Origin: a virus
DNA length: 25,123 nucleotides
Virus record (IMG/VR): IMGVR_UViG_2799112911_000001
Reading direction: 5' to 3' (one strand)
Made by a program: the position numbers and the translations under genes. The notes below the pieces were generated by a model. The model searched no databases. It had not been told where the DNA came from and worked only from the letters and a program-made list of their open reading frames with translations. This document shows, piece after piece, positions 1,143 to 24,116 of the stretch (positions are counted from its first letter, which is position 1; each line of letters starts with the position of its first letter).

Positions 1143-1146
1143 CCTA

Positions 1147-1434: not shown

Positions 1435-1653
1435 CATATAAACGTATACATATAATAAAGATAATAATTGCAAAATTATTTTTATTAAATCTTTCTTTAT
1501 GTCAATATCATATAGTTTACTTAATTCGGTTATCATAAAAATAAGGATTAAAAATCCATTAATTAAATTAAAATTAGTAAAATTCATAGTAATTCGGAGT
1601 ATAAACAAAAATATATCCATAATTTTAATTAATAAGACACATACCACTTTAAA

Positions 1654-1685
1654 ATCTAAACTCAAATTTAACTTTGAGTTTAGAT
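1654..1685. repeat. Perfect 13-bp inverted repeat with 6-bp spacer (ATCTAAACTCAAA-TTTAAC-TTTGAGTTTAGAT)
   Basis: Read directly from the sequence. The two divergent ORFs at 1665 and 1674 both begin MSLD because they start in the two arms. Confidence 0.9.
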
Positions 1686-2261
1686 AAATCTCATGGATTA
1701 ACAGAGGATTGGGAATGGGTTAAAGCTAAAGATTTCATGTTATTTAATCCCAGAGAATCTGTCAAAAAAGGGACTATTGTAAAAAATGTTCCAATGGATA
1801 AGATTGAACCTAAAACAAAAGAAATTCCAAGCTATGAAATCTCTGAATATAACGGTGGAGTTAAATTTAGAAATGGTGATACTTTAATGGCTAGAATCAC
1901 ACCATGTCTTGAAAATGGTAAGATTTCACAGGTGTCAATTTTAGATAATGATGAAGTAGGTGCTGGATCTACAGAATTCATTGTATTGAGAGAAAAAGAA
2001 GGAGTTAGTGATAAAGATTTCATTTATTATCTTTCTAATAGCGAATACTTTAAAGAACCTGCAATAAAATCTATGGTCGGTTCATCTGGACGGCAAAGGG
2101 TTCAAAGAGATGTTGTTGAAAATCTAGACATACTTGTTCCACCATTAGATACACAAAAGAAAATAGGTAAAATATTATCCCTTTTTGACAAGAAAATTAC
2201 ATCAAACAAAGAAATAAATAGAAATTTATCACTCCTCTTTAAAAAAAATTCTAAACTCTAG
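1674..2261 (+). CDS. hsdS: Type I RM specificity subunit, single-TRD (half-size, probably truncated) HsdS
   Basis: W..VK...F start, GDTLMARITPCLENGK, GSTEFIVLR, GSSGRQRV and PPLDTQKKIGKILSLFDKKI...N.EIN.NL conserved helix. HsdS similarity ends near 2228. TTG start is uncertain. Confidence 0.85.
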   Translation: MSLDKSHGLTEDWEWVKAKDFMLFNPRESVKKGTIVKNVPMDKIEPKTKEIPSYEISEYNGGVKFRNGDTLMARITPCLENGKISQVSILDNDEVGAGSTEFIVLREKEGVSDKDFIYYLSNSEYFKEPAIKSMVGSSGRQRVQRDVVENLDILVPPLDTQKKIGKILSLFDKKITSNKEINRNLSLLFKKNSKL

Positions 2262-2262
2262 T

Positions 2263-3765: not shown

Positions 3766-3773
3766 TTAATCAC

Positions 3774-6700
3774 CTAAGCTGTTTCATCAACCCACAATTC
3801 ACATTGTGCTATAACTTTATCTAAAGCGAAATCCATATCCTCTGGAGGATATTTATATTTTTTAAGTAACCTTTTTACGGTTCTACGCATGTTTGCTCTT
3901 GCAGATTCTTTCTTCTGCCAGTCAATTGTCCTGTTTCTTCTTAAAGAATCAGTTAGTTCTTGTGTAATTTTTATTAAAGTTTCATCATCATAAAAATTAT
4001 GTATATTTTCTGGAAGAGCTATCGCATTATAAAATGCTAATTCTTCTTCAGATAATCCTAATTTTTCCCCTTCCAAATGTGCTTCACGTAAAAGTTGTGC
4101 AATTCTAATTAATTCTTCAATAACTTCATCATTTGTAATGTGGCCATTAATATAATCATTACGTGTTTTTTTCAAAAGGGTTGAAAATTCTTCAGCTTTA
4201 ACAAGATTTGTTGTTGTATAAACTCTTACTTCATCATCCAGTAATTTTTCTAAAATAGTTCTGGTTAGATTTGAAGATTCCAATGCCCTTACCTTATCTA
4301 AAAATTCTGGATCAAATAGTGATACCTCTTCACTCACATTAATAACATGAATTACACCAGTACTTTTAATTGATTGATTTAGTAATTCTGTAATCTGTTT
4401 ATTGATTTGGGGTAGAGATAATTTTCCGTCTGAAGTAACTTTAACAAGGACTGTTCTTACTGCTTCAAAGAATGCCGCTTCAAATCTTTCATGTTCCTTA
4501 GCTCTACTACTGCATAATGACAACCATTTTTTAAGTAGTAGTGATTGTTTTAAATATTCTTTTTTGGTTTCTTTGCGTGATAAGTCTTCCATGAAGTTTA
4601 CTCCGCCTGAAATAACTTTTGACCTTTCTAAATCACTATCACCAAAGAAATTTGAGTAATCAAATCCATGGAACAAGTCACGACATATTTCTAATTTTTC
4701 TTGGAATTTTGGATAGGCCACCTTATCAACGTCAGGATCACCGTATTTCTTTTTGTCCTATCAGTGTATTCACTCATTGCTTTTTTGAGTTCTGATGCTA
4801 TTCCAATATAGTCAACAATGAGTCCTCCTTCCTTTCCTTTGAATACTCTGTTTACACGTGCTATTGCCTGCATTAAATTGTGCCCTCTCATAGGTTTGTA
4901 GATATACATTGTTGAAAGGGAAGGCACATCAAATCCGGTAAGCCACATATCTACAACAATAGCTATTTTCATTGGATCATCGTCATCTTTAAATTTGTTT
5001 TCAAGTTCTTTTTTATATGATTTATCACCAATTATTTCAAACCATTCATCTGGGTCTTTATTAGAACCACTCATTACAACTTTAACTTTTTCATCCCAAT
5101 CGGGATGCAGTTCCAATATTTTCTCATACATATTTATAGCTATTGGACGTGAATATGCAACAATCATTGCTTTACCACTTAATTCATGTGCCCGATTATC
5201 TTCATAGTGATGTACAATATCTGTGCAGATATCATCAATAATTTCTGGAGCTCCAAGCAATTCTTCCATTTTACTTAATTCTCTTTTACTTCGCTCAATA
5301 TTATATTCTTCAGCTTCTTCACTTAACTCCCAATATTTATCATCAATTTGTTGTAAAATGGATTCATCCAAGTTTATGTCAGCAATACGACTTTCATAAC
5401 ATATTGGGACTGTTGCTCCATCTTCTACTGATTGAGTCATATCATAAATATCAATATAATCTCCAAATACTTCCCTAGTGTTTCTGTCTGCTTTTGAAAT
5501 TGGTGTTCCTGTAAAACCAATAAATGTTGCATTTGGAAGAGCATTATGTATTCTTCGAGCAGCACCGATTTTTATTTTACCTGTTTTAGGATCTACTTTT
5601 TCTTCAAGCCCATACTGGCTTCTGTGCGCTTCATCTGATATTACAATAACATCTTCTCTATCTGTTAGTGATTCATCATAATCATCGAATTTTTGCATTG
5701 TTGAAAAGAATATCCCATTGGCTTTTCGATCATTCAGCAATTCTTTTAGGTTTTTCATGCTTGTAGCTTGTTTTGGTGTTTGTCTTAAAAAGTCACTGCA
5801 CTTAGCAAATTGCGAATATAATTGATCATCTAAATCATTACGGTCAGTAATGACAACAAAAGTAGGGCTTTCAAGTTTTTGTTGGAGTTTATTAACATAA
5901 AATACCATGGATAGACTTTTTCCACTTCCTTGTGTATGCCAGAATACACCTGCTTTGTGGTCGCTATTAATAGCTTTGACAGTTGAGTTTACTGCTTTGT
6001 TAACAGCAAAATATTGGTGGTATGCACCCATAATTTTAATTTTAGTTGTTGAATCATTTGAATAAACAATGAAATTTTGTAATATATCAATGAATCTTTT
6101 TTTATCGAATATTCCTTCAAAGAATGTTGTAAAATCTGCCCATTGTGTTGATTCATAGCTTCCATCTGTTGTTTTCCATTCCATGAATCTGTCCTCAGAA
6201 GCAGTGATTGTACCTGCTTTTGAAATTGACATGTCACTCATTACACAAAAAGCATTGTAATTAAAAAGAGTTGGAATAACTTGCATATATTTTTTAAGTT
6301 GGTTATAAGCTTCAGATGTATCTGTATTCTCTCTGGATGGAGATTTTAGCTCACATACCACTAATGGAAAACCATTTACAAAAACAACAATATCTGGTAT
6401 TTTAGTCTCTTTATCAACTACTGTCCATTGGTTAATAGCAGTAAATAGGTTATTGTCAAGATTATCATAGTCAATGAGTTTAACATGAGTAGATTCTTCT
6501 TTTCCATCTTTCCAATAGTTTACATTGATACCATTTTGAAGATAGTCCATGAATTTATTATTTTTTTCCTCCAGCGAACCAATATCAAAATCTTGAATAA
6601 CTTCAATAGCTTTATCAACAGCCTCTTTATCTAATTGATTATTAATACCATATAATATATCTATATCATCCATATAAAGAGGATTTTTATAATCTCTTTC

Positions 6701-6799
6701 AATATTTGGACCATAAAAACTGTTATAACCTAAATTCTGAAACATTTCCATCAATGACTTTTCATAAGCCTCTTCATTATAAAATGAAATACAAACCAA
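3774..6799 (-). pseudogene. hsdR: Type I RM restriction subunit R, split by a 1-bp frameshift near 4757 (ORFs 4691-6799 and 3774-4721)
   Basis: PD..ELK nuclease motif, Walker [22 protein letters not shown] and QAIARVNR in the first ORF; C-terminal EELAFY..DW..KESARA domain in the second. Adding one base at CC 4757-4758 gives continuous [23 protein letters not shown] and about 1008 aa. Confidence 0.92.
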
Positions 6800-6910
6800 C
6801 TCCTTGAAACAATATTCTAAGTTAACAACAATATTGTAATAATGTTAGTTATATAAAAGTATACTATTAAGTTTTACTAAAATTATATATAATAGTAAAG
6901 AGTTGATACA

Positions 6911-7414
6911 ATGGCTTATATTATTGATGGTGCTTTTAATATTCCTTATGATTTAATTACCATTAAAGATTTATTAAAAAAGTTTAATTTGGAATTGTTA
7001 TTGCCTAAAAAAATTTTAGAATTAGAAGTTCCTAATGATTTTACATCATATCAATATATTAAATGTCTTGATGATCTTCCGGAAGATGAGCAGGAAGATT
7101 ATCATGATTCATATGATTGTGATATTGTTGATGGACTAATTGAATCAATTGATGATGTTTTTGAAAGTTTTCATAGAATCATAGGAAACTTTCATATGAT
7201 TGAAATTAAAGAGTGTCCATTAGATGGATTATCTGTTGATGATTTTAAGGATGGTAAAGATATTGGAGAATTCTTTTTGAACATGGAAAATCTTGATTTT
7301 GCTATGAGCTCTTGTTTAATGTATTATGAGTTTCCATTACCAAATTTAAATGGCTTTCCACTTATCATAGAATATGAATGGTCAGGTTATCAATCTCCTA
7401 TTATCTATAATTAA
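6911..7414 (+). CDS. Hypothetical strongly acidic protein (167 aa)
   Basis: Clean ORF divergent from hsdR with TATA-like elements upstream. About 35 D/E versus 10 K/R by hand count. No family recognised. Confidence 0.7.
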   Translation: MAYIIDGAFNIPYDLITIKDLLKKFNLELLLPKKILELEVPNDFTSYQYIKCLDDLPEDEQEDYHDSYDCDIVDGLIESIDDVFESFHRIIGNFHMIEIKECPLDGLSVDDFKDGKDIGEFFLNMENLDFAMSSCLMYYEFPLPNLNGFPLIIEYEWSGYQSPIIYN

Positions 7415-7438
7415 TAGATATTGAATTATTTAATTTAT

Positions 7439-8710
7439 TCATTTAACATTATCCTGCTTCTGCAATCTATTAATTTCATTATTAAATTTATAATTAATAG
7501 AAATACTATCAAGTAAAGCAACTCTAACATAGTGAGCCAATATTTCTAAATTTTCTTTTGAAATATAATCAATTCCAGAATGAACAATACTTGATCTTAT
7601 ACCATATATGTCTTTAAGAAATTTTTTAATTTCATTTTCACGCCCCGGCTTTGCTATTAATGTTGATACTTTAGAAGAAACGGCTTCGGATATGGATTCA
7701 TCATTATCAAATACAAATACAGTTTCTAGTGCAATAACTAAATATAATAATTTGGGATATGCATTAAAAAATTCAATATTATCTATTAAAGATTGATGTT
7801 TATTACCTATTTTTTTATATTCATTCATTTTAATAGACATTGCTTCACCAAACCAATAAATTGCGGTTATTAATCTATTTTCAAAATCAGATTTATTTTT
7901 TTTATTAAATAAAATAGATAAGACATTTAATACAATGCTAACGTCACCAACTTTTTCTTTTGTAAATTCACAATGAAAGATAGAACCTTCTAATTTAACA
8001 CCTGAAGCAATTTCATCGTTAGATGTGAACATTGCATATTGCCTATAGTTAGGTGAGAATACATCTCCATCTAAATTAAAATTACATTGTTTATCTGGCA
8101 ATAATAATTTTAACATGTTTAATGCAATTTTAATATTGTTCTGCGCTTTTGAATGGGCAAATTCTTTTGAACCATAAATTCGTGTTTTTGCGTAAACTTC
8201 TTTTTCTCTAAAGAAATCACCACCAAAAATTTCTTCATTATATCTATTTAATTTATCATTCATGTTTTTAATTGGAAATAATGTAACATCGCCGATAGTA
8301 ATGGGTTTTATTAATTCCAAATTTGTAATATGGAATATGCATAGATAATTATCAAAATCTTCATCAATAATATTTTCAATTTCATTTTCAAAATTATTTA
8401 ATAAATCTTCACAAAGATTCTTAAAATCTTGTTTTGGCAATGTTAATGCACCCCTTGAATTTAAATTTTCCAAAATAGATATAACATTCTCTTCAATATA
8501 TTTTTTTGAAAAATTATTGTGAATTATCTCAATTCCCATAATTTCTGAAACTATTGAATTAATACAATTATCCACATCTTTATTTCGTGGAAAAATTGTT
8601 TCCATTAAAGTAAATTTTACTTTTTCCCCTTCTTGTATATGTTTTGATGCTTTCAGTGCACGTTTTAAATTTTTTAGGATTGAATTGGATTTAAAATTAA
8701 TTAACTTCAT
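7439..8710 (-). CDS. ApeA-like HEPN domain protein (putative antiviral RNase)
   Basis: C-terminal AIYWFGEA...LVIALETVF...IYGIRSSIVHSG (RxxxxH). Full-length paralogue of 22845-24116. Confidence 0.75.
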   Translation of the reverse strand: MKLINFKSNSILKNLKRALKASKHIQEGEKVKFTLMETIFPRNKDVDNCINSIVSEIMGIEIIHNNFSKKYIEENVISILENLNSRGALTLPKQDFKNLCEDLLNNFENEIENIIDEDFDNYLCIFHITNLELIKPITIGDVTLFPIKNMNDKLNRYNEEIFGGDFFREKEVYAKTRIYGSKEFAHSKAQNNIKIALNMLKLLLPDKQCNFNLDGDVFSPNYRQYAMFTSNDEIASGVKLEGSIFHCEFTKEKVGDVSIVLNVLSILFNKKNKSDFENRLITAIYWFGEAMSIKMNEYKKIGNKHQSLIDNIEFFNAYPKLLYLVIALETVFVFDNDESISEAVSSKVSTLIAKPGRENEIKKFLKDIYGIRSSIVHSGIDYISKENLEILAHYVRVALLDSISINYKFNNEINRLQKQDNVK

Positions 8711-8741
8711 TTTAATGCCTTATTTATTGCCATATATTAGT

Positions 8742-9008
8742 TTATTCTAAATTTCCAACTATTTCTTCCCCTTTATCAGTCAAGCGGTACAACCTACCTT
8801 TCCTAACTTCAGGATTAATACATTCAACAAGTTCATGTGCTTTTAATTCAGCAAGAACTTTTGAAATATGATTTGTTCTAATCCCGGAATCATTAGCTAT
8901 TGCAGTAGGTATTTTAACATCACCATCTAAAGACTTCATCACTTTTTCCCTATACTTTGAGATTTGCACATAGCTAATTTCTGTTAACATTTCGTCTGAC
9001 AATTCCAT
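8742..9008 (-). CDS. Winged helix-turn-helix transcriptional regulator (ArsR/MarR-like)
   Basis: KIPTAIANDSGIRTNHISKVLAELKAHELVECIN...GRLYRLTDKG is a helix-turn-helix plus wing, typical of a small archaeal wHTH family. Confidence 0.85.
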   Translation of the reverse strand: MELSDEMLTEISYVQISKYREKVMKSLDGDVKIPTAIANDSGIRTNHISKVLAELKAHELVECINPEVRKGRLYRLTDKGEEIVGNLE

Positions 9009-9016
9009 ACTATCAC

Positions 9017-11000
<1,984 letters not shown>

Positions 11001-11009
11001 ATTAACACC

Positions 11010-12996
<1,987 letters not shown>

Positions 12997-12997
<1 letters not shown>

Positions 12998-13596
12998 TAA
13001 ACACTCACCTCATATATGTGATTGCCTTTAACGTCTGGATTGCATTTAATATTCATTCCGTATTTTCTAGCTTCTGTGCAGAAATACAAGTCTTCTGACA
13101 GTACTGTGTCATTGTCATATATAACGTATTTGAAATATGGATATGCCATTTTCTTGAATACATTAACATTAACGAGAGCGATTCCAAGGCCGCCACCCTT
13201 AATGTCAAATGGATTGTTAGCTTTCCATAATGTTTCGCCATAAATCATGTTTTTGTCAGTGTAATCCTTGCCAAAATCAAAGATGACAGTTTGATTTGTT
13301 GTTGTTCTTTTCTTGTAGTACCAGCCTAAAGCAATGTCTGTTTCACATTCCAATAGCTTATTGATTGTTTGTCTAGGTACATTAACGTCTGAATCTATCA
13401 TTAACACATAGTCAAAGTTGTATTCGATTGCTAGCTTTGCTATTTCGTTTCTTGCACGTGCACAGTCATATCCTTTGACATAATCAAAATACAAAAGGTA
13501 ATCTTTAGGATTTATCAGATTGTAAATGCTTTTGAAGCATTCAGGTTTGATATTTTCGAATGTTGGAATGGCAATCAGAATTTTACCTTTCATCAT
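12997..13596 (-). CDS. Glycosyltransferase, GT2/GT-A fold
   Basis: ILIAIPT first strand, [16 protein letters not shown] (DxD) and SEDLYFC. Likely start is ATG 13596 after GGAGG (ORF track starts at 13632). The stop overlaps the collagen gene start (TAATG). Confidence 0.85.
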
Positions 13597-13846
13597 TGCC
13601 CTCCAATTTCTTGATTCTATCTTCAAGTTCATTCAAATTAATCTGGTCTTCACGCTCACATCTATACTCATAAATGTCAATTAGTGCAACAATGACAATG
13701 GCTAATGCAAATGGCAATAGTCCTTCGATTAAAGCATACTTTGTGGCGTTGGTCATTATGATGTTGATAGCTATCGCTGTTAAAACAGCACTGGAAATTG
13801 TTTTGGTAAAGTTGCAAATAAATATCTTCTTTTTTAATCTGTTCAT
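13583..13846 (-). CDS. Small two-TM membrane protein (holin-like candidate)
   Basis: Two hydrophobic stretches and a charged C-terminal tail; overlaps the glycosyltransferase start. Confidence 0.55.
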   Translation of the reverse strand: MNRLKKKIFICNFTKTISSAVLTAIAINIIMTNATKYALIEGLLPFALAIVIVALIDIYEYRCEREDQINLNELEDRIKKLEGNDER

Positions 13847-13870
13847 GATAACAGTATCCTCCAGAGAAGC

Positions 13871-14122
13871 CTATTGTTTTTCAGAGTAACCCAAAACTCT
13901 TTTAGCTTTTTGTTTTGCGTCTTCAACATCTCCTTCGCCTCTTATCCTGCTTGCATAATGGCTGGCTACACCTAACACTATCATAAGGATACAGTAAGGA
14001 ATGGTATTTTCACTAATACCTAATGCTTCTGAGTATAACATGACGATTGGAATGACAGTGCCTAGAAATGAAGTCAATATGTCAATGTCCTTTCTGTTTT
14101 TCTCTAAGAATTCATAAATCAT
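13871..14122 (-). CDS. Small two-TM membrane protein (holin-like candidate)
   Basis: 83 aa with two hydrophobic segments and a basic C-terminus (KQKAKR); GGAGGT RBS upstream. Confidence 0.6.
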   Translation of the reverse strand: MIYEFLEKNRKDIDILTSFLGTVIPIVMLYSEALGISENTIPYCILMIVLGVASHYASRIRGEGDVEDAKQKAKRVLGYSEKQ

Positions 14123-14282
14123 TCTTGTTTACCTCCTCTTCATAATTTTTGTATGTATGGCTTAAGATTACACCATCAACGCAAATCTTTTCTTCAGTTC
14201 TGTAAACCTCTTCGGCGTTTTCTTTTATGTTTATCCAGGATTCGTATTCTTCCAACGTTTCAAAGTATTTTATGTATTTCAT
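14112..14282 (-). CDS. Small hypothetical viral protein (56 aa, MKYIKYFETLEEYESW...)
   Basis: GGAGG RBS; ATGA overlap with the upstream ORF; overlaps the downstream ORF start. Confidence 0.6.
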   Translation of the reverse strand: MKYIKYFETLEEYESWINIKENAEEVYRTEEKICVDGVILSHTYKNYEEEVNKNDL

Positions 14283-14470
14283 TGTGCCTCCCAAGTTATT
14301 GAGTAGTATAAGATTCCATCTTCGATTTTAAATGATATTATAGGTTTAACAGCATAAGGATAACCACTATCGACGTATCTAGTACCATTCCAGTAAAACC
14401 AATGGCCTGTTGAAGCGTCAATGTATGGTCCTTTATTTTCCAAAGTTCCTACGAGTTTCCTTATTGTCAT
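14279..14470 (-). CDS. Small hypothetical viral protein (63 aa)
   Basis: GTGAGG RBS and its own promoter motif upstream. GPYID..TGHWF...DSG resembles the PYIG.NGNW..DTG motif of phage fibre proteins. Confidence 0.6.
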   Translation of the reverse strand: MTIRKLVGTLENKGPYIDASTGHWFYWNGTRYVDSGYPYAVKPIISFKIEDGILYYSITWEAQ

Positions 14471-14522
14471 GCCATAACCTCACTTTAATATTATATATTT
14501 TATTATGTAATTTATTATATAT

Positions 14523-14544
14523 TTTATTATCTATTTTATATAAA
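14523..14544 (-). promoter_or_regulatory. Conserved viral-module promoter, copy 1 (TTTATATAAAATAGATAATAAA)
   Basis: Archaeal TATA box plus conserved downstream TAATAAA, upstream of 14470. The TATA box is formed by the last codons of the upstream gene. Confidence 0.6.
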
Positions 14545-15312
14545 GTATATATCTTTGCCATCATCACAGCCATCCCATTCCATGTACAGTTTGTTATCTT
14601 CCCAAACGAACCTGACATCATTGACAATAGCTACGTCGGGAAGCTCACAATATGTTACTCCATCTGCATCTTTAACATAATTGGCCTGTGCCATGATGTT
14701 TGATTCTGAAGGTATGATCATATTAACGACATGAGTTATTTCATCCTGTTCAAATGAGCAGTCCCCAAGATCAATACAGTTCTGGGATTCAGGATACATT
14801 TCGATTTCTGACATTTGCCTATAGACTCTAATGAACTGCGTATCCTCATTTTCCGTTAGATTAACGATTGAAAGTAATCTTAAATCATGACCTTGAACCG
14901 GATTGCATTCACCGTCACTGTCAATGTAGATTCTAGTGTTTGGCAATATATCTGCAGGTGCCGGTCTTTTTAATTTCAATCTGAAAACATCGCCCAATAC
15001 GGCCACTGCTACTAAAGTTAATCCTGAAGTTTTGACTTGTACTTTACCTAATAGATATCCGAATGCGAGTTCGCCTGCTTTAGCTTTTCTGACTATAGTA
15101 TGCTCCATTGTGGATGATTCATCTAACGTTACCATTTCACCAACTGCACACTGGTCGGAACAAATCCAAGCCGTATGTTCTTCATTAACATAGCTTCTGT
15201 CTCCTTCATCAAGTAGACAAGCTATTACATCCATTTTTTCTGAATGTTCCAATCCTGTTGGATATCCACGTCCATGTCCAATTGTTGAGTTTACATCATA
15301 ATCTATTATCAT
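14536..15312 (-). CDS. Capsid decoration/cement-like domain protein, paralogue of the 11876-12997 N-terminus
   Basis: Shared motifs LLDEGD/LLDDGD, AFGYLL/PIGIVV and [24 protein letters not shown]. The decoration function is inferred from context. Confidence 0.5.
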   Translation of the reverse strand: MIIDYDVNSTIGHGRGYPTGLEHSEKMDVIACLLDEGDRSYVNEEHTAWICSDQCAVGEMVTLDESSTMEHTIVRKAKAGELAFGYLLGKVQVKTSGLTLVAVAVLGDVFRLKLKRPAPADILPNTRIYIDSDGECNPVQGHDLRLLSIVNLTENEDTQFIRVYRQMSEIEMYPESQNCIDLGDCSFEQDEITHVVNMIIPSESNIMAQANYVKDADGVTYCELPDVAIVNDVRFVWEDNKLYMEWDGCDDGKDIYFI

Positions 15313-15313
15313 T

Positions 15314-16504
15314 TTAAAACACCCAATCCCAATTCTTGTTAATTATTTTATCTGGAATATGAAGTCCAGTATCTTCCATATCATCATCTTCAGCATCCCA
15401 CATTAACGTTGAGCCTCTGTATGCCTTAGTGTATTCGTGACTTCCTTTATATAAACGAATTCCAGTTTTTGTTCTTTCTGTTACTGTTACTGTTGGAATT
15501 CCATTAGCTGCAAACAATGGTGATGGAAATATGAGTAACCATTTTAGATCGACATAATTGAAATCTTCAAAGTCTGTTGTGGCGTAAAATGTTGGGGAGA
15601 TTTGAATTTCAGCATAGTTGGTTTCATAAATTTTGCCGGGATTGTTTCTGCTGAATCCTTCCAGGTAATCTGAGCTATTTGAAGTTCCAGTTCCTACACG
15701 GCCATGACGATGATATTGTTTATAATTTCCTTCCCCATCACTGCCTGAAGCATAAGCATCAAAGGAACTGGCCATTACTAAAGTTTTAGCACCATTAAAC
15801 ATGCAATAGTCCTTTTCCTCATCAGCCCAGTAGCATGTTGTACCTTTCGTATCTATTCCATATGTTGTGAGACTGCCATCAACTTGCATCATGACATTTC
15901 CAAAAGTTGAACCATGATATGTTGCATTGTCATTAACATCAACATTGCCCCCAATACGTTTAAATCTGGCTACAGTAACACGATTGTTACTTAATGATTG
16001 ACTTGAAGCAAATGTTGTAATTAAATCAGATGGAGAAGTTCCGTCAAGGTTAGGAACGAATCTAGCTCTGAGAAATCTGCCTCCGTCTGTTGAGTCATTG
16101 TTGATACTTAATCCTGAGTAGGTCATGAAAAAGTTTGAGTATGTATCATTATTTGCATCAAACATTAACACATCATTACCAGTTGTTAAAGTGCTGCTGA
16201 AGGTGGTTGAAGTATCATAAACATCAAGCAATAGCTTTGTGGTTTCTGAGATCTGGCCAACAGGAACTCTTGCAAGTATTGCTGCTGGTTGTGACCCATA
16301 AGCTGGAATGTATAATACTTGACATTCTGTATTGTTTGAGGTTTTGATCTTTAGGTTTTTCAAATCACTTCTGAAATAATTGGAGAAAGAACTGCTGGCT
16401 AAATTATCTAGGAAGATATAATCATAGCTGGATGAATAGCTACTGCTCCGTTGATTGTAATTGCTCATGACAATATTGATTTGTAATTTTTTCTGTAATG
16501 TCAT
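15314..16504 (-). CDS. Hypothetical virion-associated protein (S/T/G/N-rich, beta-rich)
   Basis: Long clean ORF. Likely start is ATG 16504 just downstream of the promoter motif (ORF track starts at 16552). The C-terminal LYKGS.EY.KAYRG..L.W motif resembles phage fibre termini. Confidence 0.6.
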   Translation of the reverse strand: MTLQKKLQINIVMSNYNQRSSSYSSSYDYIFLDNLASSSFSNYFRSDLKNLKIKTSNNTECQVLYIPAYGSQPAAILARVPVGQISETTKLLLDVYDTSTTFSSTLTTGNDVLMFDANNDTYSNFFMTYSGLSINNDSTDGGRFLRARFVPNLDGTSPSDLITTFASSQSLSNNRVTVARFKRIGGNVDVNDNATYHGSTFGNVMMQVDGSLTTYGIDTKGTTCYWADEEKDYCMFNGAKTLVMASSFDAYASGSDGEGNYKQYHRHGRVGTGTSNSSDYLEGFSRNNPGKIYETNYAEIQISPTFYATTDFEDFNYVDLKWLLIFPSPLFAANGIPTVTVTERTKTGIRLYKGSHEYTKAYRGSTLMWDAEDDDMEDTGLHIPDKIINKNWDWVF

Positions 16505-16513
16505 GATTAATAT

Positions 16514-16535
16514 TTTATTATCTCTTTTATATAAA
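16514..16535 (-). promoter_or_regulatory. Conserved viral-module promoter, copy 2 (TTTATATAAAAGAGATAATAAA)
   Basis: Near-identical to copy 1 and placed immediately upstream of ATG 16504. Confidence 0.6.
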
Positions 16536-16629
16536 ATATATAATAAAAACAATAATATTATTTGACAAAAAATTTTATAAAATTTAATTTATAATATATT
16601 ATTTTACCCTAGTTCTGTGAGGAAGTATA

Positions 16630-18225
16630 ATGTCAGAATATAAAATACCAATAATACCTAATTTAAATCTGGAAAAAAATGAAAAAGAACATTACGAATT
16701 TAATGTTAATGTTGGAAAAATTAAATCTAAAAAGACGGGACATATTTCCGAAATTTATAATATTAAAATAGAAATTCATGATAAAATTGATATTTATTTT
16801 GAGATAGATTGGTTAGCTTATAGTAATTTATTTATGGAGGAAGTTCCCTCAGATAATGGTAGAAAATTCATTGATAGTTCTGAAATTAGATTTTTTGATA
16901 TTGAGTGTGATTCTAATGGATATAACATATCTTTATTAAATTTTAATTTAAAAAATTATACTCATGAATCTAAAAATGGAATGGTGAAAGATTTTATTTT
17001 AGGAGAATGTGATGAATGTATTTTAGTAAAGAATAACAATTTCATAAATGATGATGAAAATGTTCGAGTATGGAATATTTTGGAATGTTCCAATACATCT
17101 CATGTTGGTTTTCTTGAATTTGAATCAGATAATCTAAGTAATGTATTTCTAAAATCAAGTAATACTCATGATTATTATAGTGAATATGAAACTGAACAAG
17201 ATTTAGAAATAATGTATAATCTTCGAGAAAATCAGAATAATTCTTTTAATCAACTTTTAGGGCAAGATTCATTTTTATATTATGAAGAGGTATATGGGGA
17301 AATTTCTAATGATATTATTAATAATATTAATAAACTATTGATGTTTTATGATTCTAATATTATCCCCTCCAGATTTGTAATTTTTGAATCAATAGATACA
17401 AAAAAATTGGAAATTAAAATAAAATCTAAAAATAATTATAAATTAAATGGAAGGTCTATTTTTAAAGATTGGCCTAATAATTTATTTAATTTTATTAATT
17501 CATCTTATGATGCTTATATTAATGCAAAAAATAGCAATATTGACATTGATTTATTATTTCATTATTATGTTTGGATAAAAAATGAACAATATGCTGAAGT
17601 TAAATTAATGTTATGTTCTGAATTTTTAGAAGTATTAAAAAATGATAAACTTAACCCCCATAAAAATGAAGAGGGTTATTTTTATGAAAAAATAGTTTAT
17701 AGGTTTAGCTCTGCTAAATTAGATACTTATAAATTATTAAAAATTTTACAACCAGAAATCATTCAAATAATTACTGATTTAGAAAAAGAGTATATTGACC
17801 AAGGTTATAAAAGAAAGGATGTAATAAAAATTTGCAAGAAATATAAAAAAGAATATTTATTGAGATGTATAGAACGTTATAGAAATAAAATTATCCATTC
17901 AGGAAAATTTGAATTACATCCAGAAGATATTAATAAAATTCTAGAAAACTTAATAACAGATTTTAAAAATGATTATACTATAGATAGTCAAATTGAACTC
18001 ATTGAAAAAATTGGAAATGATATGAAATTTGAATTAAATAATGTGGATGGCATATTTGATATTTTTAAACAAGCTAAACTTTTTGAAAGTATAATTGAAA
18101 TTTTTCTATTGAATCTACTTAATGTTGATTGTTTGTTAATCAATAATCATAGTTTAAGATCCAAAATACCTAATGAGGATGATTTCAATTCTAAAAATTA
18201 CGTTGACAAATTTATTAAAAAATAA
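16630..18225 (+). CDS. ApeA-like protein with C-terminal HEPN domain (531 aa)
   Basis: LLFHYYVW...LMLCSEFLEVL helix followed by IERYRNKIIHSG (RxxxxH). Very AT-rich and opposite in strand to the surrounding viral genes. Confidence 0.7.
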   Translation: MSEYKIPIIPNLNLEKNEKEHYEFNVNVGKIKSKKTGHISEIYNIKIEIHDKIDIYFEIDWLAYSNLFMEEVPSDNGRKFIDSSEIRFFDIECDSNGYNISLLNFNLKNYTHESKNGMVKDFILGECDECILVKNNNFINDDENVRVWNILECSNTSHVGFLEFESDNLSNVFLKSSNTHDYYSEYETEQDLEIMYNLRENQNNSFNQLLGQDSFLYYEEVYGEISNDIINNINKLLMFYDSNIIPSRFVIFESIDTKKLEIKIKSKNNYKLNGRSIFKDWPNNLFNFINSSYDAYINAKNSNIDIDLLFHYYVWIKNEQYAEVKLMLCSEFLEVLKNDKLNPHKNEEGYFYEKIVYRFSSAKLDTYKLLKILQPEIIQIITDLEKEYIDQGYKRKDVIKICKKYKKEYLLRCIERYRNKIIHSGKFELHPEDINKILENLITDFKNDYTIDSQIELIEKIGNDMKFELNNVDGIFDIFKQAKLFESIIEIFLLNLLNVDCLLINNHSLRSKIPNEDDFNSKNYVDKFIKK

Positions 18226-18336
18226 ATATTTCAAGTTTGAATCTACAATTACAATTCTTGAAGTTCCTAAAGATAAATAAACATCCTAGAATTATAAGTG
18301 TAGAAAAAATCAATGTAACTAATTAATAAAATTAAG

Positions 18337-18552
18337 CTATTGCTTGAAAAACCAACCATCAACGAAATCCATTAAATATTTATTAGATTTAACAATAATG
18401 GCTTTATCAAAATTAAGGAACAGGATATTGGATCCTGTTCCAGGGTTAAGTTTTTGAACATGTTTATTTATCAGCTCTGATAATGAATAACAACCTTGCT
18501 CTATAAGCATCAATGGTTTCAATGCACGATATTTAATGGGAAGTGAACACAT
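18337..18552 (-). CDS. Small hypothetical protein (71 aa, MCSLPIKY...)
   Basis: GGGGAGTG RBS directly before ATG 18552 (ORF track extends to 18627). No recognisable motif. Confidence 0.4.
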   Translation of the reverse strand: MCSLPIKYRALKPLMLIEQGCYSLSELINKHVQKLNPGTGSNILFLNFDKAIIVKSNKYLMDFVDGWFFKQ

Positions 18553-18629
18553 AACACTCCCCAATGAATAACGAGTTTTCCTACATATTAGTTTTAGCTC
18601 CGGTGGAAAAAGCAAAAACACCATCATAG

Positions 18630-19598
18630 CTAGATTCTGGTTCTATTGAATCCCATATCCTTTAAGATTTTATTATATTCCTCACGGGTCGTAAATGAAG
18701 GTTTATCTTCATCTCCTATTGAATCGGTTTCCCTGGCTTCACCATCATCACCAGAGTTAGAAGGATTTCTTCCTCCGGGAGTTGAACCATCATTACTGGC
18801 TTCAATTTTAATTCTTCTTTCAGCCAATTTTTCCATAAGTTCCATATCTACATCGCCGGTGAGTAGCTTATCAATTATCTCTTTATCCTGAGCGTTTTCA
18901 TTATAATTAAAGTTGTACTTTGCCTCGTACTCTTTTATTTTTCTTTCATTTTCAGCTTTACGAAGTTCAGACAATTCCTTTAAGATATCATCTTTACTGT
19001 CAATGAATTCCTTATTCTCTTCAATAGCTTTCTTAATCTCTTCATATTTTTCAGATTCTTCTTTTAAAGCATTAATTTCTTCCTGAAGCTTTCCGATTTC
19101 TGCATCCTTTCCCTGAAGTTTCTCCAACAATAAACTAGTTGCTACATTAGCTTCCTTGTTTTGAGGAGCAGGTGCCGCCTGAGGTTGTGGTTGAGGATTT
19201 CCTGTCTCACCAGAATCTCCGGCATTATCTGAATTCAACAAAGTAATTTTTCTAGGGCTTTTGGTTACACCAACATCAATCAAACTCATAGTATCAATTC
19301 CAAATGAATCTCCGTTATCTTTTAACAAGACATCAACTTTAGGGGACAATCCCTTTCCTTCCATATCCAGTTCATCAGGGATTTCTATGAATAGCTTTCC
19401 TTCTTCATAGCTTATTTCATTTCCAATTCCCACATAGATATTGTCATGCTCTGAAGTCAGCGGAATTCCTCCACGGTAGTTTTCAGCTATCAGCTTTAGA
19501 TCATCTTCAGTCCACTCAACAGGTTTGGTCAGGCGATTGTCCAGATCGGAGTAGTCATATGATCCGACTTCAAAAAGTTCATGTCTCATTATCATCAC
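18630..19598 (-). CDS. Prohead protease/scaffolding protein (Mu gpI-like)
   Basis: N-terminal domain with SEHD, GLSPK and LIDVGVTKSPR resembles the Mu-type protease pattern (H..., SP, vaLTn.P). It is followed by a QP/AP linker, an E/K-rich coiled coil and a short C-terminal helix typical of scaffolds. Directly downstream of the portal; start may be 19589. Confidence 0.65.
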   Translation of the reverse strand: MMIMRHELFEVGSYDYSDLDNRLTKPVEWTEDDLKLIAENYRGGIPLTSEHDNIYVGIGNEISYEEGKLFIEIPDELDMEGKGLSPKVDVLLKDNGDSFGIDTMSLIDVGVTKSPRKITLLNSDNAGDSGETGNPQPQPQAAPAPQNKEANVATSLLLEKLQGKDAEIGKLQEEINALKEESEKYEEIKKAIEENKEFIDSKDDILKELSELRKAENERKIKEYEAKYNFNYNENAQDKEIIDKLLTGDVDMELMEKLAERRIKIEASNDGSTPGGRNPSNSGDDGEARETDSIGDEDKPSFTTREEYNKILKDMGFNRTRI

Positions 19599-19622
19599 AC
19601 TTTTTTATTATATTAATTATTA

Positions 19623-19649
19623 TATAATTTATTACTTATTTTATATAAA
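19623..19649 (-). promoter_or_regulatory. Conserved viral-module promoter, copy 3 (TTTATATAAAATAAGTAATAAATTATA)
   Basis: TATA box plus TAATAAA upstream of the scaffold gene; perfect 27-bp inverted copy at 21044-21070. Confidence 0.65.
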
Positions 19650-19655
19650 CTTTTA

Positions 19656-20957
19656 TTATATTTCAACTCCGCTATCAGTTAGGATTCTCTCACCGACAGG
19701 CTGTTCCTCTTCAAAGTTACTTAGATAATTCTTATAGATTTCATCACCTTCAGAAGACAATTCCATAATGTATCGGAGTACATCATCTCTTGAATAGCTG
19801 AAGTAAATGTCTAAAGTTTCACTGATGCCCATTAGCTCCAACTGCCTATTCAATAGCTCATTACAGTACTTTAACACCCATTTCTGATCATTTGCAACAT
19901 TAACAATGAATCCTGTAATAGCCGAATCATTAATGTATTCTGCAACATTCTGATTAGATTTTTCATTACCTGCCTGTGACTGAGGAGTTACAAAAGTCCT
20001 TAAAATATTATTCCTGAAGATTTCAGTCTGTCTTGTATAATCTGACTGGTAGTTGTTACCCCCTAATATTTTAGATTCGATTCCAGGAGGTACAATAGCT
20101 ACATTACTGCCCGCAGTTGTGCCGTAATCAGCATATAGGTTTTCCTTAGCTGTGGATGAAAGTTCAGTAATGTAAGGCTGGCCGTTGGCATCCATTGCAG
20201 GTTTAACTTCAATAATATTATCCTTATTAATACGCTCTACCTGATTTCTTTCAAGATTGCATTTATGATAGATATCATCCAAGCAGTTTAAGATAATGCT
20301 TTGAGCTTCACAGTAGATTTCATTATACATGAAGTTAATGACCTCTTCAGGTTCATACTTAACCGTCAATGTTCCTTCTTCAACACTAACATAATTATTG
20401 AACTCTTCAGGAGATCCGTTAACAATATCTTTAGGCATCTCATGCAGGAATAACTGGACTTCATTATCATCATTGAATTCTTTTTTTAATCCGTAGCCGT
20501 GTGCGCCGATTTCTAAAAATATAGGTTTGAGGTATTTGCCAATCTTTTTATCCCATCTCGCCACAGGTTTAATTAATCCTTCCCCATCAACCATTCCACC
20601 CTGCAATATATTTTTAGCTACCTGGCTGATGTCAATTTTTCTGGCCCATAAAATCAAAGTTAATTTCTGCTCTTGAGATAATTTATTGTCCTTATCTACA
20701 AGCACAATATTAACATTAGCTTTATCAATTCTGTTTTTCAAAATACCTGAAGTATAACCGTCAAGTTTAACGGCATATCTAGCATTAGCTATTGTCTTGT
20801 TGATTACCGGAGGGAGTGCATCTGGAAGATCAAGGCCAGTATTTATTCCATCAGTTCTAGGTTGTCTTTCATCTTCACCCCAATAGCTGCGTTTAGTGTT
20901 GTACTGCTCTACACGGTTGTTTAATAATCTAGTTTTAATATAATCTGTTAATCCCAT
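19656..20957 (-). CDS. Portal-like protein
   Basis: 433 aa. YEPEEVINFMYNEIYCEAQSIILNCLDDIY resembles the portal 'EviH...yG.S.i' region, and AIVPPGIESKILG...NILRTFVTPQSQAG resembles the portal clip/stem. Upstream of the protease/scaffold gene, as in head modules. Confidence 0.65.
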   Translation of the reverse strand: MGLTDYIKTRLLNNRVEQYNTKRSYWGEDERQPRTDGINTGLDLPDALPPVINKTIANARYAVKLDGYTSGILKNRIDKANVNIVLVDKDNKLSQEQKLTLILWARKIDISQVAKNILQGGMVDGEGLIKPVARWDKKIGKYLKPIFLEIGAHGYGLKKEFNDDNEVQLFLHEMPKDIVNGSPEEFNNYVSVEEGTLTVKYEPEEVINFMYNEIYCEAQSIILNCLDDIYHKCNLERNQVERINKDNIIEVKPAMDANGQPYITELSSTAKENLYADYGTTAGSNVAIVPPGIESKILGGNNYQSDYTRQTEIFRNNILRTFVTPQSQAGNEKSNQNVAEYINDSAITGFIVNVANDQKWVLKYCNELLNRQLELMGISETLDIYFSYSRDDVLRYIMELSSEGDEIYKNYLSNFEEEQPVGERILTDSGVEI

Positions 20958-20995
20958 ATTATCATCCTAACATTTTTAAGTTTCATAAATATATA

Positions 20996-21043
20996 TTTAT
21001 TATATTATTTATTATATTATTTATTATATTATTTATTATATTA
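20996..21043. repeat. Four perfect tandem 12-bp repeats (TTTATTATATTA)x4
   Basis: Units start at 20996, 21008, 21020 and 21032, between a palindromic TATA (TTTATATAAA, 21044-21053) and the portal start. Confidence 0.9.
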
Positions 21044-21070
21044 TTTATATAAAATAAGTAATAAATTATA
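21044..21070 (+). promoter_or_regulatory. Conserved promoter motif, copy 4 (inverted; palindromic TATA possibly bidirectional)
   Basis: Exact reverse complement of 19623-19649. Confidence 0.55.
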
Positions 21071-21396
21071 AAGGTTAACTAAGTCTCAATACATTAATTA
21101 CTGGCAATTATACAAAATCACCTCATTCATTTTCTTACGAACAATTGTAACCTTTATTTGCCAAAAAGTTCAGATTATTAGTTGTAAAAATACGGCGAGA
21201 AAAAGAGTAAGTATACAAAAAGCAACTACAAAGATATTTATGATTTTATATGGAGAAAACTCAATTAATCCAATATCACCAATTGATCTTTTTACATGAA
21301 TGTAATCATTTTTATTTAGGATTATTAAAAATCTGAAATATTACTGTTCACATGCTCTCTAAATCCATTTATATTATCATTTACAAAAATTGAATT

Positions 21397-22734
21397 ATGG
21401 TTTTTGAAAAATATGTTGATGAAATTACATTATTAATTGAAAAAAATATTAAACGTTTATCTTTAAAAATTAGGCCAAAAATGGCTCATTATTCAATGAG
21501 TACAGAAAACTTATTTGAATTGACCTACGAAGAACATGAAAGATTATCTGAAATAGTTGAAGAGATTTCACATGAATTAAATCTTGAAAACAAATTCCCC
21601 CAAAAGTTTATTTTTGATAAATTAGTTAAAGAAGTTATAATCAAATCATATAACTATTCTTCCACGACTTCTGAAATTAAATCCAATTTAAAAATTAGAT
21701 TTAAAGAATTTGAAAAAATATTAATGGAAGAACTTAATGACTGGACATATTTTATTCCAATCACTGGAATTGATATTAAACAAATCCTCAATTTAGGCGA
21801 AATGTCAATTTATCCATTTAACTCGTTTTTAGATGAATTTTTAGATTATTTACAAAATGTTAAAATGTTGTCTTGTGATGATGAAGAGTATAAAATTCTT
21901 CATGATGAATGTATGGATTTAAAAAATTATTGTTTTGTCAAATTAACCGCTAACGGCACTAAAGAAACCTCAAGAGACAAGGCATTAAGCAAGACCAACG
22001 AGCTTCTGTCAATTTTTAGTTTATATAAGCCTTATAATTTCAATGCTTTTGGGATTATGGGTGGAATTTCACCTTTGAATTCTGAGATTATTACATATTC
22101 TATTAATGAAGATAAATTTAATATTTCTATGAGAATGACTAAAAGTGGTTGGAATTTAAATTTAACTGAAAGTATTGAACATATGAAAAAAAATCATTTG
22201 GACTATTTAATTAGTTTATTGGATAAAACTGAATTGAACTATGTCGAAGAATCGCTATTGCATTCAATACAATGGTATTATGAATCAGTTCAAACTGAAA
22301 CAGATTATGATGAAGATGTTGTCAAAGTAACCTTGGGTTCAGGAGATTATTTTGAGCATTACAGTTATTTTAAACTAGGTATTAGATTAATTAATTTAGT
22401 TTCATCTTTAGAATCTTTATTGATTTTTAATGATAGTACTAATAGGGATACCAGAAAAGAACGGTTTAATTTGATAATGAACTATAGAAATAAACAGCTA
22501 TATGATTATTCTAATGATTTAGATGATCTTTATGATCTTAGAAATGATATTGCCCATAGCAATAAGTTAGAAAAATTATTGCAATTCAACATTGAAAAGA
22601 ATACTAATTTATTAAATATATTTATAATTAAGTTTGTTGAACTCATATTGGACTTTAAAAAAGATTCTAGTAAATCTTTAAATAGTAAAGAAGATCTGGT
22701 TAGATTTTATTCTGGACAAAATAGATTGAATTAA
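21397..22734 (+). CDS. ApeA-like HEPN domain protein (445 aa)
   Basis: SIQWYYES...LVSSLESLL...LYDLRNDIAHSN (RxxxxH). The N-terminal YFIPITGI...LGEMSIYPF motif is shared with the two 423-aa proteins. Confidence 0.75.
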   Translation: MVFEKYVDEITLLIEKNIKRLSLKIRPKMAHYSMSTENLFELTYEEHERLSEIVEEISHELNLENKFPQKFIFDKLVKEVIIKSYNYSSTTSEIKSNLKIRFKEFEKILMEELNDWTYFIPITGIDIKQILNLGEMSIYPFNSFLDEFLDYLQNVKMLSCDDEEYKILHDECMDLKNYCFVKLTANGTKETSRDKALSKTNELLSIFSLYKPYNFNAFGIMGGISPLNSEIITYSINEDKFNISMRMTKSGWNLNLTESIEHMKKNHLDYLISLLDKTELNYVEESLLHSIQWYYESVQTETDYDEDVVKVTLGSGDYFEHYSYFKLGIRLINLVSSLESLLIFNDSTNRDTRKERFNLIMNYRNKQLYDYSNDLDDLYDLRNDIAHSNKLEKLLQFNIEKNTNLLNIFIIKFVELILDFKKDSSKSLNSKEDLVRFYSGQNRLN

Positions 22735-22844
22735 ACAGTTATTATCAATTATTTCATGATTCTTAAAAGAGACAATGACATGTTTTTAATAGATTATTGA
22801 AATTTGAATAGTTGAATGGTTAAAATTATTTTTTTAGTGATATT

Positions 22845-24116
22845 ATGAATACTATAAATTTTAAAAAGAAATCATTAATGAAAAACTTTAAAAAAGCATT
22901 AAAGGCAGCTAATCACATACAACCTGGCGAAATGGTCCGTACAAGTAGTGGCGGCAATCATAAAATGGCGTTCCCTCGAAATAGTAAAGTAACAAAATTC
23001 ATAGATTTAATTATTAATGAAATTATTAAAAACCCCATTATTCATAATAATTTTTCTAGAAAATATCTTGAAGAAAATATAATATATGTATTAGAGGATT
23101 TGCAGTTAAGTAACGCATTAAATTTAAAAAATAATGATTTTGAAAAACAATTTTATTTTTCAATAAGTACTTTTGAAAATAAAATTAAAGACATTATCAA
23201 TAATGACTTTGAAGAATTTGAATGTATTTTTCATGTTGATAATTTAAAGTTAGATAAGCCTATTAATCTAGGTAAAGTGACTTTTTTCCCATTTTCTGAG
23301 AAAAATTCTAAATATTCTAAAATTAATGATAAAATTATAGGTCCAAATTTCTTTAAAAAAGATGATGTATATGCAAAAATAAAAATTTATGGATCTAAAC
23401 AGTATGCCCTTACACAATCACAAGTAGAAATAAAAATAGCAATAAATTTATTAAAAATATTATTGCCAGAACAGTATTGTAATTTCAATTTAGACGGGGA
23501 TACATTGATGCCCTCTCCAAGACATCATATTATATTAACTTCTGATGAACAGATTTTTGGAGGATGGGAAAATCAGAATATCCACTTTGGATGTAATTTT
23601 AATAAGGAAGTTGATGATGTGGATTATGAATTGTTTGTTTTATCAATATTATTTAATACAAATCCAAAATCTGATTTTGAAAATAGATTATTAACTGCAA
23701 TTTACTGGTTTAGTGAAGCATTATCTCTAAAAAGAAATTCGTATTCTAAAACTGAGAAAAAACATTTGACACAACTGAATAATCTTGAATTTTATGATGT
23801 TTATCCTAAATTATTGAATTTGGTAATCTGTTTAGAAACCCTTTTTGTTTTTGGCGGCGAAAAAAAATCTGAGGCAATTTCAAATAAAGTATCTCTGTTG
23901 ATTGCTAAACCTGGTTTTGAAAAAAAAATTACACATTTTTTAAATAAAATTTATGACTCTCGGTCTAAAGTGGTTCATTCAGGAAATATTTATGTATCTA
24001 AACATGATTTGAATTTATTAATTGATTATACAAGAATTGCATTGTTTAATACAATATCCATTAATTTCAAATATTCTGAACAGATAAGGCATTTAAATAA
24101 ATTAAATTGTAAGTAG
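22845..24116 (+). CDS. ApeA-like HEPN domain protein (423 aa)
   Basis: AIYWFSEA...LVICLETLF...IYDSRSKVVHSG (RxxxxH). Colinear paralogue of 7439-8710. Confidence 0.75.
   Translation: MNTINFKKKSLMKNFKKALKAANHIQPGEMVRTSSGGNHKMAFPRNSKVTKFIDLIINEIIKNPIIHNNFSRKYLEENIIYVLEDLQLSNALNLKNNDFEKQFYFSISTFENKIKDIINNDFEEFECIFHVDNLKLDKPINLGKVTFFPFSEKNSKYSKINDKIIGPNFFKKDDVYAKIKIYGSKQYALTQSQVEIKIAINLLKILLPEQYCNFNLDGDTLMPSPRHHIILTSDEQIFGGWENQNIHFGCNFNKEVDDVDYELFVLSILFNTNPKSDFENRLLTAIYWFSEALSLKRNSYSKTEKKHLTQLNNLEFYDVYPKLLNLVICLETLFVFGGEKKSEAISNKVSLLIAKPGFEKKITHFLNKIYDSRSKVVHSGNIYVSKHDLNLLIDYTRIALFNTISINFKYSEQIRHLNKLNCK

Follow-up and report, generated by a model that had tools for sequence, protein, structure and literature searches.

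Four HEPN-type genes around and within a vir323-like provirus fragment

The IMG/VR virus record IMGVR_UViG_2799112911_000001 is a stretch of 25,123 nucleotides, here called the window, from a Methanobrevibacter genome, in which four AT-rich genes (genes 1–4; Table 1) each encode a protein with one Rx4H motif of the HEPN type. We consider it probable that these genes specify stand-alone HEPN abortive-infection effectors and that they lie in a defence island holding a decayed provirus. Genes 1, 3 and 4 belong to a large family, present in both bacteria and archaea, that has no curated model or description, and gene 2 belongs to a small Methanobrevibacter family whose HEPN domain would be a remote relative of Apea-like HEPN. 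RNase activity, dimerization, a trigger and a defence phenotype are properties that we infer for the four proteins.

Two protein families with a conserved Glu and an Rx4H motif

The window contains 39 open reading frames (ORFs) of at least 80 amino acids (aa). A first-pass annotation, made from the letters alone, had singled out four of these as AT-rich and as carrying an intact RxxxxH motif after an LE.L helix. All of this was borne out: the four ORFs are open at exactly the coordinates in Table 1, the motifs are present, and the GC content of the genes is 0.21–0.25, compared with 0.33–0.45 for the viral ORFs between them. The terms "ApeA-like" and "RNase", under which they had been listed, are interpretation rather than observation. 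In each protein the motif occurs once, near the C terminus, 42–84 residues past an L-E-x-L/V helix that contains a conserved Glu. From composition, 0.22–0.28 RxxxxH matches per protein would be expected by chance, and the stronger argument is conservation, with R and H invariant or nearly so in every family alignment. No small co-oriented MNT-like ORF lies beside any of the four genes among the window ORFs.

Genes 1 and 4 are mutually inverted paralogues that are 50% identical, and gene 3 is a distant full-length relative within the same superfamily (hhalign of gene 1 against gene 3: 328 columns, probability 97.9%, E 4e-13). Gene 2 was rejected as a relative of these three, as only a patch of 26–34 residues around the motif aligns. 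Instead of the four alike genes in one array that had been proposed, we found two unrelated architectures, one represented by genes 1, 3 and 4 and the other by gene 2.

When a profile of genes 1, 3 and 4 was run against 1.84 billion cluster representatives (50% identity clusters), 1,976 of these proteins matched at E ≤ 1e-3 and 436 at E ≤ 1e-10. Family members are mostly 400–460 aa long and match end to end. In an alignment of 94 members with 16–50% identity to gene 1, the sole invariant columns are E329, R372 and H377, and G140, W286, Y369 and G379 are nearly invariant. E339, R382 and H387 are invariant in the alignment of the gene-3 family. In the language-model search, the clusters neighbouring gene 1 are bacterial, unnamed and ~450 aa long, and RefSeq labels bacterial plasmid homologues of the large family "HEPN domain-containing protein". 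A restriction endonuclease, a DUF87 ATPase and a TPR protein are neighbours of one of these plasmid homologues, and an AAA ATPase, an IS3 transposase and a recombinase are neighbours of a second. For all three groups of window proteins, the close homologues come almost exclusively from Methanobrevibacter-type metagenome contigs, and among them one is named "HEPN domain-containing" by NCBI and one, a gene-3 homologue, "Apea-like HEPN" by UniRef.

The AlphaFold2 model of gene 1 (predicted local distance difference test [pLDDT] 84.7, predicted template modelling score [pTM] 0.80) consists of a helical bundle (residues 1–118), an alpha/beta middle domain (120–250) and a C-terminal HEPN-like bundle (258–419). 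A Foldseek search with the full-length model gave no match at E ≤ 0.001, the rows returned being noise, and the N-terminal bundle had generic TetR-C-like structural matches only. For residues 272–411, HEPN proteins top an exhaustive structural alignment against 48,161 PDB representatives; the matches include 1wwp, 4nqf, 1ylm and 1jog, together with two Cas13 HEPN domains, sacsin HEPN, AF_0298, Csm6 and AbiA. Residues 276–405 align with HepT residues 1–133, and R372 falls at about HepT residue 97. R372 would thereby coincide with the RX4HXY site of HepT, a positional assignment in the model for which the HepT motif was placed from Y104 (PMC7641770). At the sequence level, the PDB holds no relative of the 94 large-family members, and PDB searches with profiles of the window families gave no HEPN match. 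A four-helix up-down HEPN bundle is found for genes 1, 3 and 4, and the HEPN motif (Rx4–6H, preceded by a helix with a conserved residue that is polar or acidic) is found for all three groups. Since the HepT-like fold comes together with the invariant E, R and H and with the RefSeq naming of bacterial homologues as HEPN proteins, genes 1, 3 and 4 likely carry a HEPN-type catalytic domain.

A HEPN domain is also suggested at the C terminus of gene 2 by an invariant triad, language-model neighbours and domain-trimmed hhalign, although the support is weaker than for genes 1, 3 and 4. The model of gene 2 (pLDDT 86.4) has a beta-rich N-terminal domain (residues ~1–270) and a helical C-terminal domain, with R418 and H423 at the end of a long helix and placed as in gene 1; E334, R418 and H423 are invariant in 24 homologues. 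Foldseek with the full-length model returned Hcp-like rows for the N-terminal barrel only, none at E ≤ 0.001, and a second structure search likewise found only the barrel. This barrel is Hcp/tail-tube-like, and because flavin-reductase-type split barrels match it too, the predicted fold appears to be generic. In a language-model search with residues 280–531, HEPN_Apea was carried by 23 of the 30 closest clusters (score 0.95). A domain-trimmed hhalign comparison with genuine archaeal HEPN_Apea domains gave 168 collinear columns (score 26.3, P 0.004, probability 7.9%), in which E334 is paired with the Glu of QALE and RNKIIH with RNYYTH, and the score exceeded those of 60 of 60 column shuffles (z 5). 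A TATA-like box and GAGGA are present upstream of gene 2.

Homologue neighbourhoods and the viral fragment

Comparison of neighbourhoods, a check named in the first-pass annotation, revealed that homologues adjoin restriction-modification (RM) and other defence genes. Around a gene-2 homologue (69% identical) we found MmeI-type, DpnII and type I RM genes together with SLFN_AlbA_2 and AAA_14/DUF4143. The same island, which is densely packed with archaeal defence genes, also holds Fic, several MmeI/Eco57I-type RM genes, MrcB_N, DUF2326 and HNH, as well as unannotated genes of 382 and 437 aa. Two genes were considered as further members and proved unrelated to the window families: the 437-aa gene, which is upstream of the gene-2 homologue, and one of 536 aa in the vicinity of a gene-3 homologue. 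A gene-1 homologue occupies an integrase island with AAA_14/DUF4143 and DUF4238, and a gene-3 homologue adjoins an MmeI-type RM gene. We examined 116 neighbours at 13 loci, which come from 12 species genomes. Methylase_S (type I specificity subunit) is the most frequent Pfam family among them; N6_Mtase, ResIII, HSDR_N, SLFN_AlbA_2 and a TIR-TPR protein are also present, six neighbour ORFs match the PADLOC type I methyltransferase model, and no viral family is within the top 25 neighbour Pfam families. A defence role would fit these surroundings, with their RM, Schlafen/AlbA_2, TIR-TPR and AAA_14/DUF4143 genes and the integrase island.

The distribution of both families is patchy. The large family is present in 13 of 121 Methanobacteriaceae species and the gene-2 family in 5 of 121, with no more than two copies per genome. 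Compared with 0–2 copies per genome in these species, the 3 + 1 copies within 17 kb of the window are a real local concentration. Pattern scans of species genomes gave one cyanobacterial partial match and one Methanobrevibacter match. No relative of either family was found in IMG/VR (2.9 million contigs) or in INPHARED (50,697 phage and virus records).

The viral genes of the window are related to those of vir323 (Caudoviricetes sp., BK063679.1), a circular genome of 34,179 bp whose host is Methanobacteriales. Positions 8742–20957 are collinear, gene for gene, with vir323 143–13686, from the portal to a winged helix-turn-helix (wHTH) gene after the fibres, with 45–95% aa identity and every ORF open; the exceptions are gene 2 and a 96-aa ORF at 18337–18627 (region 16630–18627). 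The earlier description of genes surrounding and interrupting a viral module therefore stands, since gene 2 is inside the collinear block and genes 1, 3 and 4 are directly outside it. These three genes begin just beyond the two ends of the block, and gene 1 is 31 nt downstream of the last virus-collinear gene, with which it shares the strand. The complete genome of the relative vir323 contains none of the four. The slot of gene 2 is between the prohead protease and the next conserved gene, where vir323 has an unrelated 1.8 kb with small ORFs; around gene 2 we found no convincing direct or inverted repeats, as signatures of insertion, in the AT-rich DNA.

Because counterparts of several genes annotated in vir323 (two HK97-like major head genes, terminase, methyltransferase and pseudomurein endopeptidase) are absent, the block in the window is a defective fragment, ~40% of the virus. 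A 412-aa ORF at 15314–16552, which comes after the protease slot, was considered as the major capsid protein and rejected, as its vir323 homologue is annotated as hypothetical and the HK97-like head genes of vir323 are elsewhere (17941–19822). The idea of a HEPN gene replacing a capsid gene is therefore unsupported. Collagen-repeat fibre proteins are encoded at 9017–9976 and 11876–13632, one of them with a Phage_tail_C tip domain, and a glycosyltransferase-like gene, which matches Anp1 weakly, overlaps the second of these fibre genes at its start, a layout that is the same in vir323. The arrangement at the locus recurs on many metagenome contigs, and the viral block could reflect a recent deletion or be a retained, domesticated fragment.

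The left flank is a defence locus, owing to the adjacent type I RM genes. Two hsdS fragments, at 1156–1434 and 1674–2261, face against hsdM, and this RM system may be disrupted or phase-variable. An IS-type transposase-like ORF is located at 60–1130. Between hsdR and gene 1 is a 167-aa acidic ORF (6911–7414) that has no family match and is kept in all contigs sharing the arrangement. On the right, beyond the HEPN-type genes, are DUF1848, thiolase and HMG-CoA synthase.

Table 1. Positions of the HEPN-type genes, their motifs and neighbouring features in the window
Feature	Nucleotides	Strand	Residues	Details
Gene 1	7439-8710	-	423 aa	E329, R372, H377
Gene 1 motif RSSIVH (Rx4H)	7580-7597	-	372-377	
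Gene 2	16630-18225	+	531 aa	E334, R418, H423; GC 0.21
Gene 2 motif RNKIIH (Rx4H)	17881-17898	+	418-423	
Gene 3	21397-22734	+	445 aa	E339, R382, H387
Gene 3 motif RNDIAH (Rx4H)	22540-22557	+	382-387	
Gene 4	22845-24116	+	423 aa	E331, R373, H378
Gene 4 motif RSKVVH (Rx4H)	23961-23978	+	373-378	
Type I RM, left flank	2263-6799	-		hsdM 2263-3765; hsdR as overlapping ORFs 3774-4721 and 4691-6799
Left provirus part	8742-16552	-		wHTH, collagen-like tail fibres, glycosyltransferase-like, hypotheticals; vir323 4443-13686, 45-82% aa identity
Right provirus part	18630-20957	-		Prohead protease homologue (86% aa identity) and portal (95% aa identity) to vir323

Relationship to ApeA and competing explanations

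Is any of the four proteins ApeA? Pfam HEPN_Apea (PF18739, cut-off 24.4 bits) and ApeA_NTD1 (PF18862) match none of them even at E ≤ 1, no model in PADLOC, a library expected to include ApeA, matched any of the four at E ≤ 1, and NCBIfam, PHROGs and Pfam scans of the four returned nothing meaningful. HEPN_Apea also matched 0 of the 94 large-family members at E ≤ 0.01, 0 of the 24 gene-2 homologues at 0.1 and 1 of 25 gene-3 homologues (E 0.011). As a positive control we used nine archaeal ApeA proteins, which matched HEPN_Apea in nine of nine cases (E down to 2e-34) and ApeA_NTD1 in eight of nine (E down to 1e-57); true ApeA controls range from 1e-20 to 1e-57 on the ApeA models. As this control worked, the missing matches of the window proteins are not an artefact of AT-rich archaeal composition. 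Genuine ApeA-type genes were detected with PF18739 in 7 of the 121 Methanobacteriaceae species genomes, at genome positions distinct from both window families. Two of them (464 and 477 aa, each with ApeA_NTD1 and HEPN_Apea) are encoded on opposite strands of one Methanobacteriaceae genome with ~2 kb between them (G026:C1:1111478-1117351), and in another genome of this family (G053) a single contig has two or three true ApeA genes; clustering of true ApeA genes is thus also seen in Methanobacteriaceae.

Full-length hhalign against ApeA was not significant (probability <1%). After domain trimming, genes 1, 3 and 4 gave a weak similarity to HEPN_Apea (score 19.2, P 0.026) that was greater than 60 of 60 column shuffles. 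The presence of ApeA_NTD1 in the gene 2 N terminus was considered and rejected, since the hhalign score of 14.8 is inside the shuffle range (12.3 ± 1.8). By the models that define the family, the four proteins do not appear to be ApeA, and the label "ApeA-like" has to be given up in that sense. A remote kinship to ApeA at the level of the HEPN domain, closest for gene 2, is plausible.

It could be argued that the genes nonetheless specify genuine members of ApeA, a family of doughnut-forming tRNA anticodon nucleases activated by dinucleotides, and have diverged too far for the Pfam models to recognize them. Such an origin would be consistent with the UniRef label on one gene-3 homologue, the single HEPN_Apea match among the 25, the HEPN_Apea clusters that are language-model neighbours of the gene-2 C terminus, and domain hhalign scores to HEPN_Apea that are weak yet above shuffles. 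It would also be consistent with the domain order of gene 1 (helical, alpha/beta, HEPN), which parallels that of three-domain Ec2ApeA, and with the beta-rich N terminus of gene 2, which at ~270 aa is like the description of ApeA-NTD1 (PMC3710099). However, the empty Pfam and PADLOC searches with the four proteins, the failure of HEPN_Apea across the 94 members, a control that succeeded with loci at other genome positions, the full-length hhalign result and the shuffle-level score of the gene-2 N terminus make this improbable. It is very improbable that the motif domain is not a nuclease and that these are non-catalytic HEPN-like or unrelated helical proteins with housekeeping or regulatory roles: without catalysis it would be hard to explain why 94 members with 16–50% identity have retained exactly E, R and H, and a patchy, island-associated distribution speaks against housekeeping.

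How, then, are the HEPN-type genes related to the viral fragment? One possibility is that they are provirus cargo, morons of a vir323-like virus that provide superinfection exclusion or serve as addiction toxins, by which the now defective provirus would be maintained in the chromosome. For gene 2, which is inside the fragment in a slot that is variable in vir323 too, and for gene 1, which is directly downstream of the last viral gene and shares its strand, at a place where vir323 has a variable/methyltransferase region, carriage by the provirus is a live minority alternative. The hypervariable region of MSTV1 contains a putative HEPN toxin-antitoxin module (PMC11375127), and the arrangement is recurrent on many metagenome contigs, although these contigs may stem from one lineage. 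Since no homologue is present in the IMG/VR contigs or in the phage and virus records, vir323 included, homologues occur in non-viral RM-rich islands, GC content is 10–20 points below that of the viral genes, and no small antitoxin-like gene is adjacent, we regard cargo as unlikely overall. It has also been proposed that the co-location with portal and capsid genes is functional, in which case the HEPN proteins would sense the portal, protease or other structural proteins and the fragment would be a trigger, bait or regulator. We found no support for a functional link to portal or capsid: in all families, homologues are present where no viral genes are near, in the 121 species genomes they are single genes at scattered loci, no relative was found in IMG/VR or INPHARED, the fragment lacks the head and terminase genes annotated in vir323, and the gene 2 barrel, which flavin-reductase-type split barrels also match, is generic. 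We consider such coupling quite improbable. A bolder proposal is that genes 1, 3 and 4 represent an uncurated bacterial and archaeal class of single-protein antiviral HEPN RNases with their own sensor (the helical bundle plus the alpha/beta domain, with G140, W286 and Y369 as a possible ligand pocket), and that in this Methanobrevibacter lineage the three paralogues and the second family were recruited around the retained viral fragment, its ORFs intact, as working partners, for example as a guard/decoy against vir323-like viruses; taken as a whole, this is distinctly unlikely.

The explanation that we favour remains that the genes specify stand-alone HEPN effectors of abortive infection, placed in a defence island together with a decayed provirus. 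The proteins would be built of N-terminal sensor or regulatory domains and a C-terminal HEPN ribonuclease. Dimerization through the HEPN domain would bring two Rx4H motifs and the conserved Glu together in a composite, metal-independent RNase site, which would be closed until the N-terminal domains sense an infection cue. Once activated, the site may cut tRNA or other RNA, resulting in growth arrest of the infected cell (abortive infection). As to the history of the locus, a chromosomal defence island next to type I RM genes may have received a vir323-like provirus, which then lost ~60% of its genome. The HEPN-type genes would be AT-rich accessory DNA that occupies the two points of deletion or junction as well as the single variable slot within the fragment, and thus neighbours of the viral genes rather than partners. 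From the first-pass idea of an archaeal HEPN defence array, the HEPN assignment, the defence context and the density survive; the ApeA identity, the uniformity of the array and the link to portal and capsid do not.

Archaeal antiviral defence beyond CRISPR and RM is poorly charted, and gut and rumen methanogens are of practical interest. The most useful by-product of our analysis is the large family, which comprises ~2,000 clusters, has an invariant E...Rx4H signature, lacks a curated model and is invisible to Pfam, NCBIfam and PADLOC 2.0. If its members are active abortive-infection RNases, defence catalogues would gain from this 430-aa family a single-gene system that is widespread and at present unannotated, and its new sensor domains and triggers would be open to study, as has been possible for ApeA and DARNA. 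The locus itself appears to interleave a virus fragment with defence genes without the virus being their carrier, which calls for caution when adjacency is the basis for identifying "provirus-encoded defence".

Comparison with known systems

ApeA would be the best functional analogue of the window proteins. In ApeA, N-terminal domains gate a HEPN tRNase that is activated by an infection-derived ligand, leading to abortive infection, and the authors of that study describe HepT as the structure closest to the ApeA HEPN domain (bioRxiv 10.64898/2026.01.26.701840). Like E. coli ApeA (Ec1–Ec4ApeA), the window genes are single-gene units, in the range of 420–580 aa, with non-catalytic N-terminal domains and a C-terminal HEPN domain with Rx4H; genes 2 and 3 also have the RN-x3-H form, and RM systems adjoin. 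The similarity of gene 2 to HEPN_Apea is weak but collinear, and its E-to-R spacing is 84 aa, compared with ~92 in ApeA. Unlike ApeA, the window proteins have no Pfam or PADLOC match and their N-terminal domains have no detectable similarity to ApeA_NTD1. In addition, genes 1, 3 and 4 have a compact, HepT-like HEPN domain (E-to-R ~43 aa), whereas HEPN_Apea is split and rich in insertions.

HepT itself (SO_3166; PDB 5YEP/7AE8/8XDJ) is a toxin of 130 aa whose partner, an MNT antitoxin, modifies the Tyr of RX4HXY by adenylylation. The proteins of the window have three times this length and no MNT partner, and their motif is followed by S-G or S-N (RSSIVHSG, RNKIIHSG) rather than containing the Tyr. 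Membership in the HepT/MntA toxin-antitoxin system was rejected on these two grounds, the missing Tyr of RX4HXY and the lack of an adjacent MNT antitoxin gene.

DARNA (PD-T7-3), which illustrates how an infection cue can gate such proteins, is likewise a HEPN tRNase that stands alone and mediates abortive infection; it is ~450 aa long and has a sensor domain that is large and non-catalytic (bioRxiv 10.64898/2026.02.22.705581). However, its HEPN domain is N-terminal (R117/H122) and its sensor C-terminal, which is the opposite order, and we saw no sequence relationship. Closest in setting is ORF4 of the Methanobrevibacter smithii virus MSTV1 (PMC11375127), a HEPN gene that is also associated with a Methanobrevibacter provirus, in a hypervariable region of defence and counter-defence genes. 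We liken the two by description rather than by sequence. The MSTV1 gene is part of a proposed three-gene toxin-antitoxin operon in an intact, inducible virus, whereas the window genes are solitary, have no viral relatives that we could find, and accompany a virus that is a fragment.

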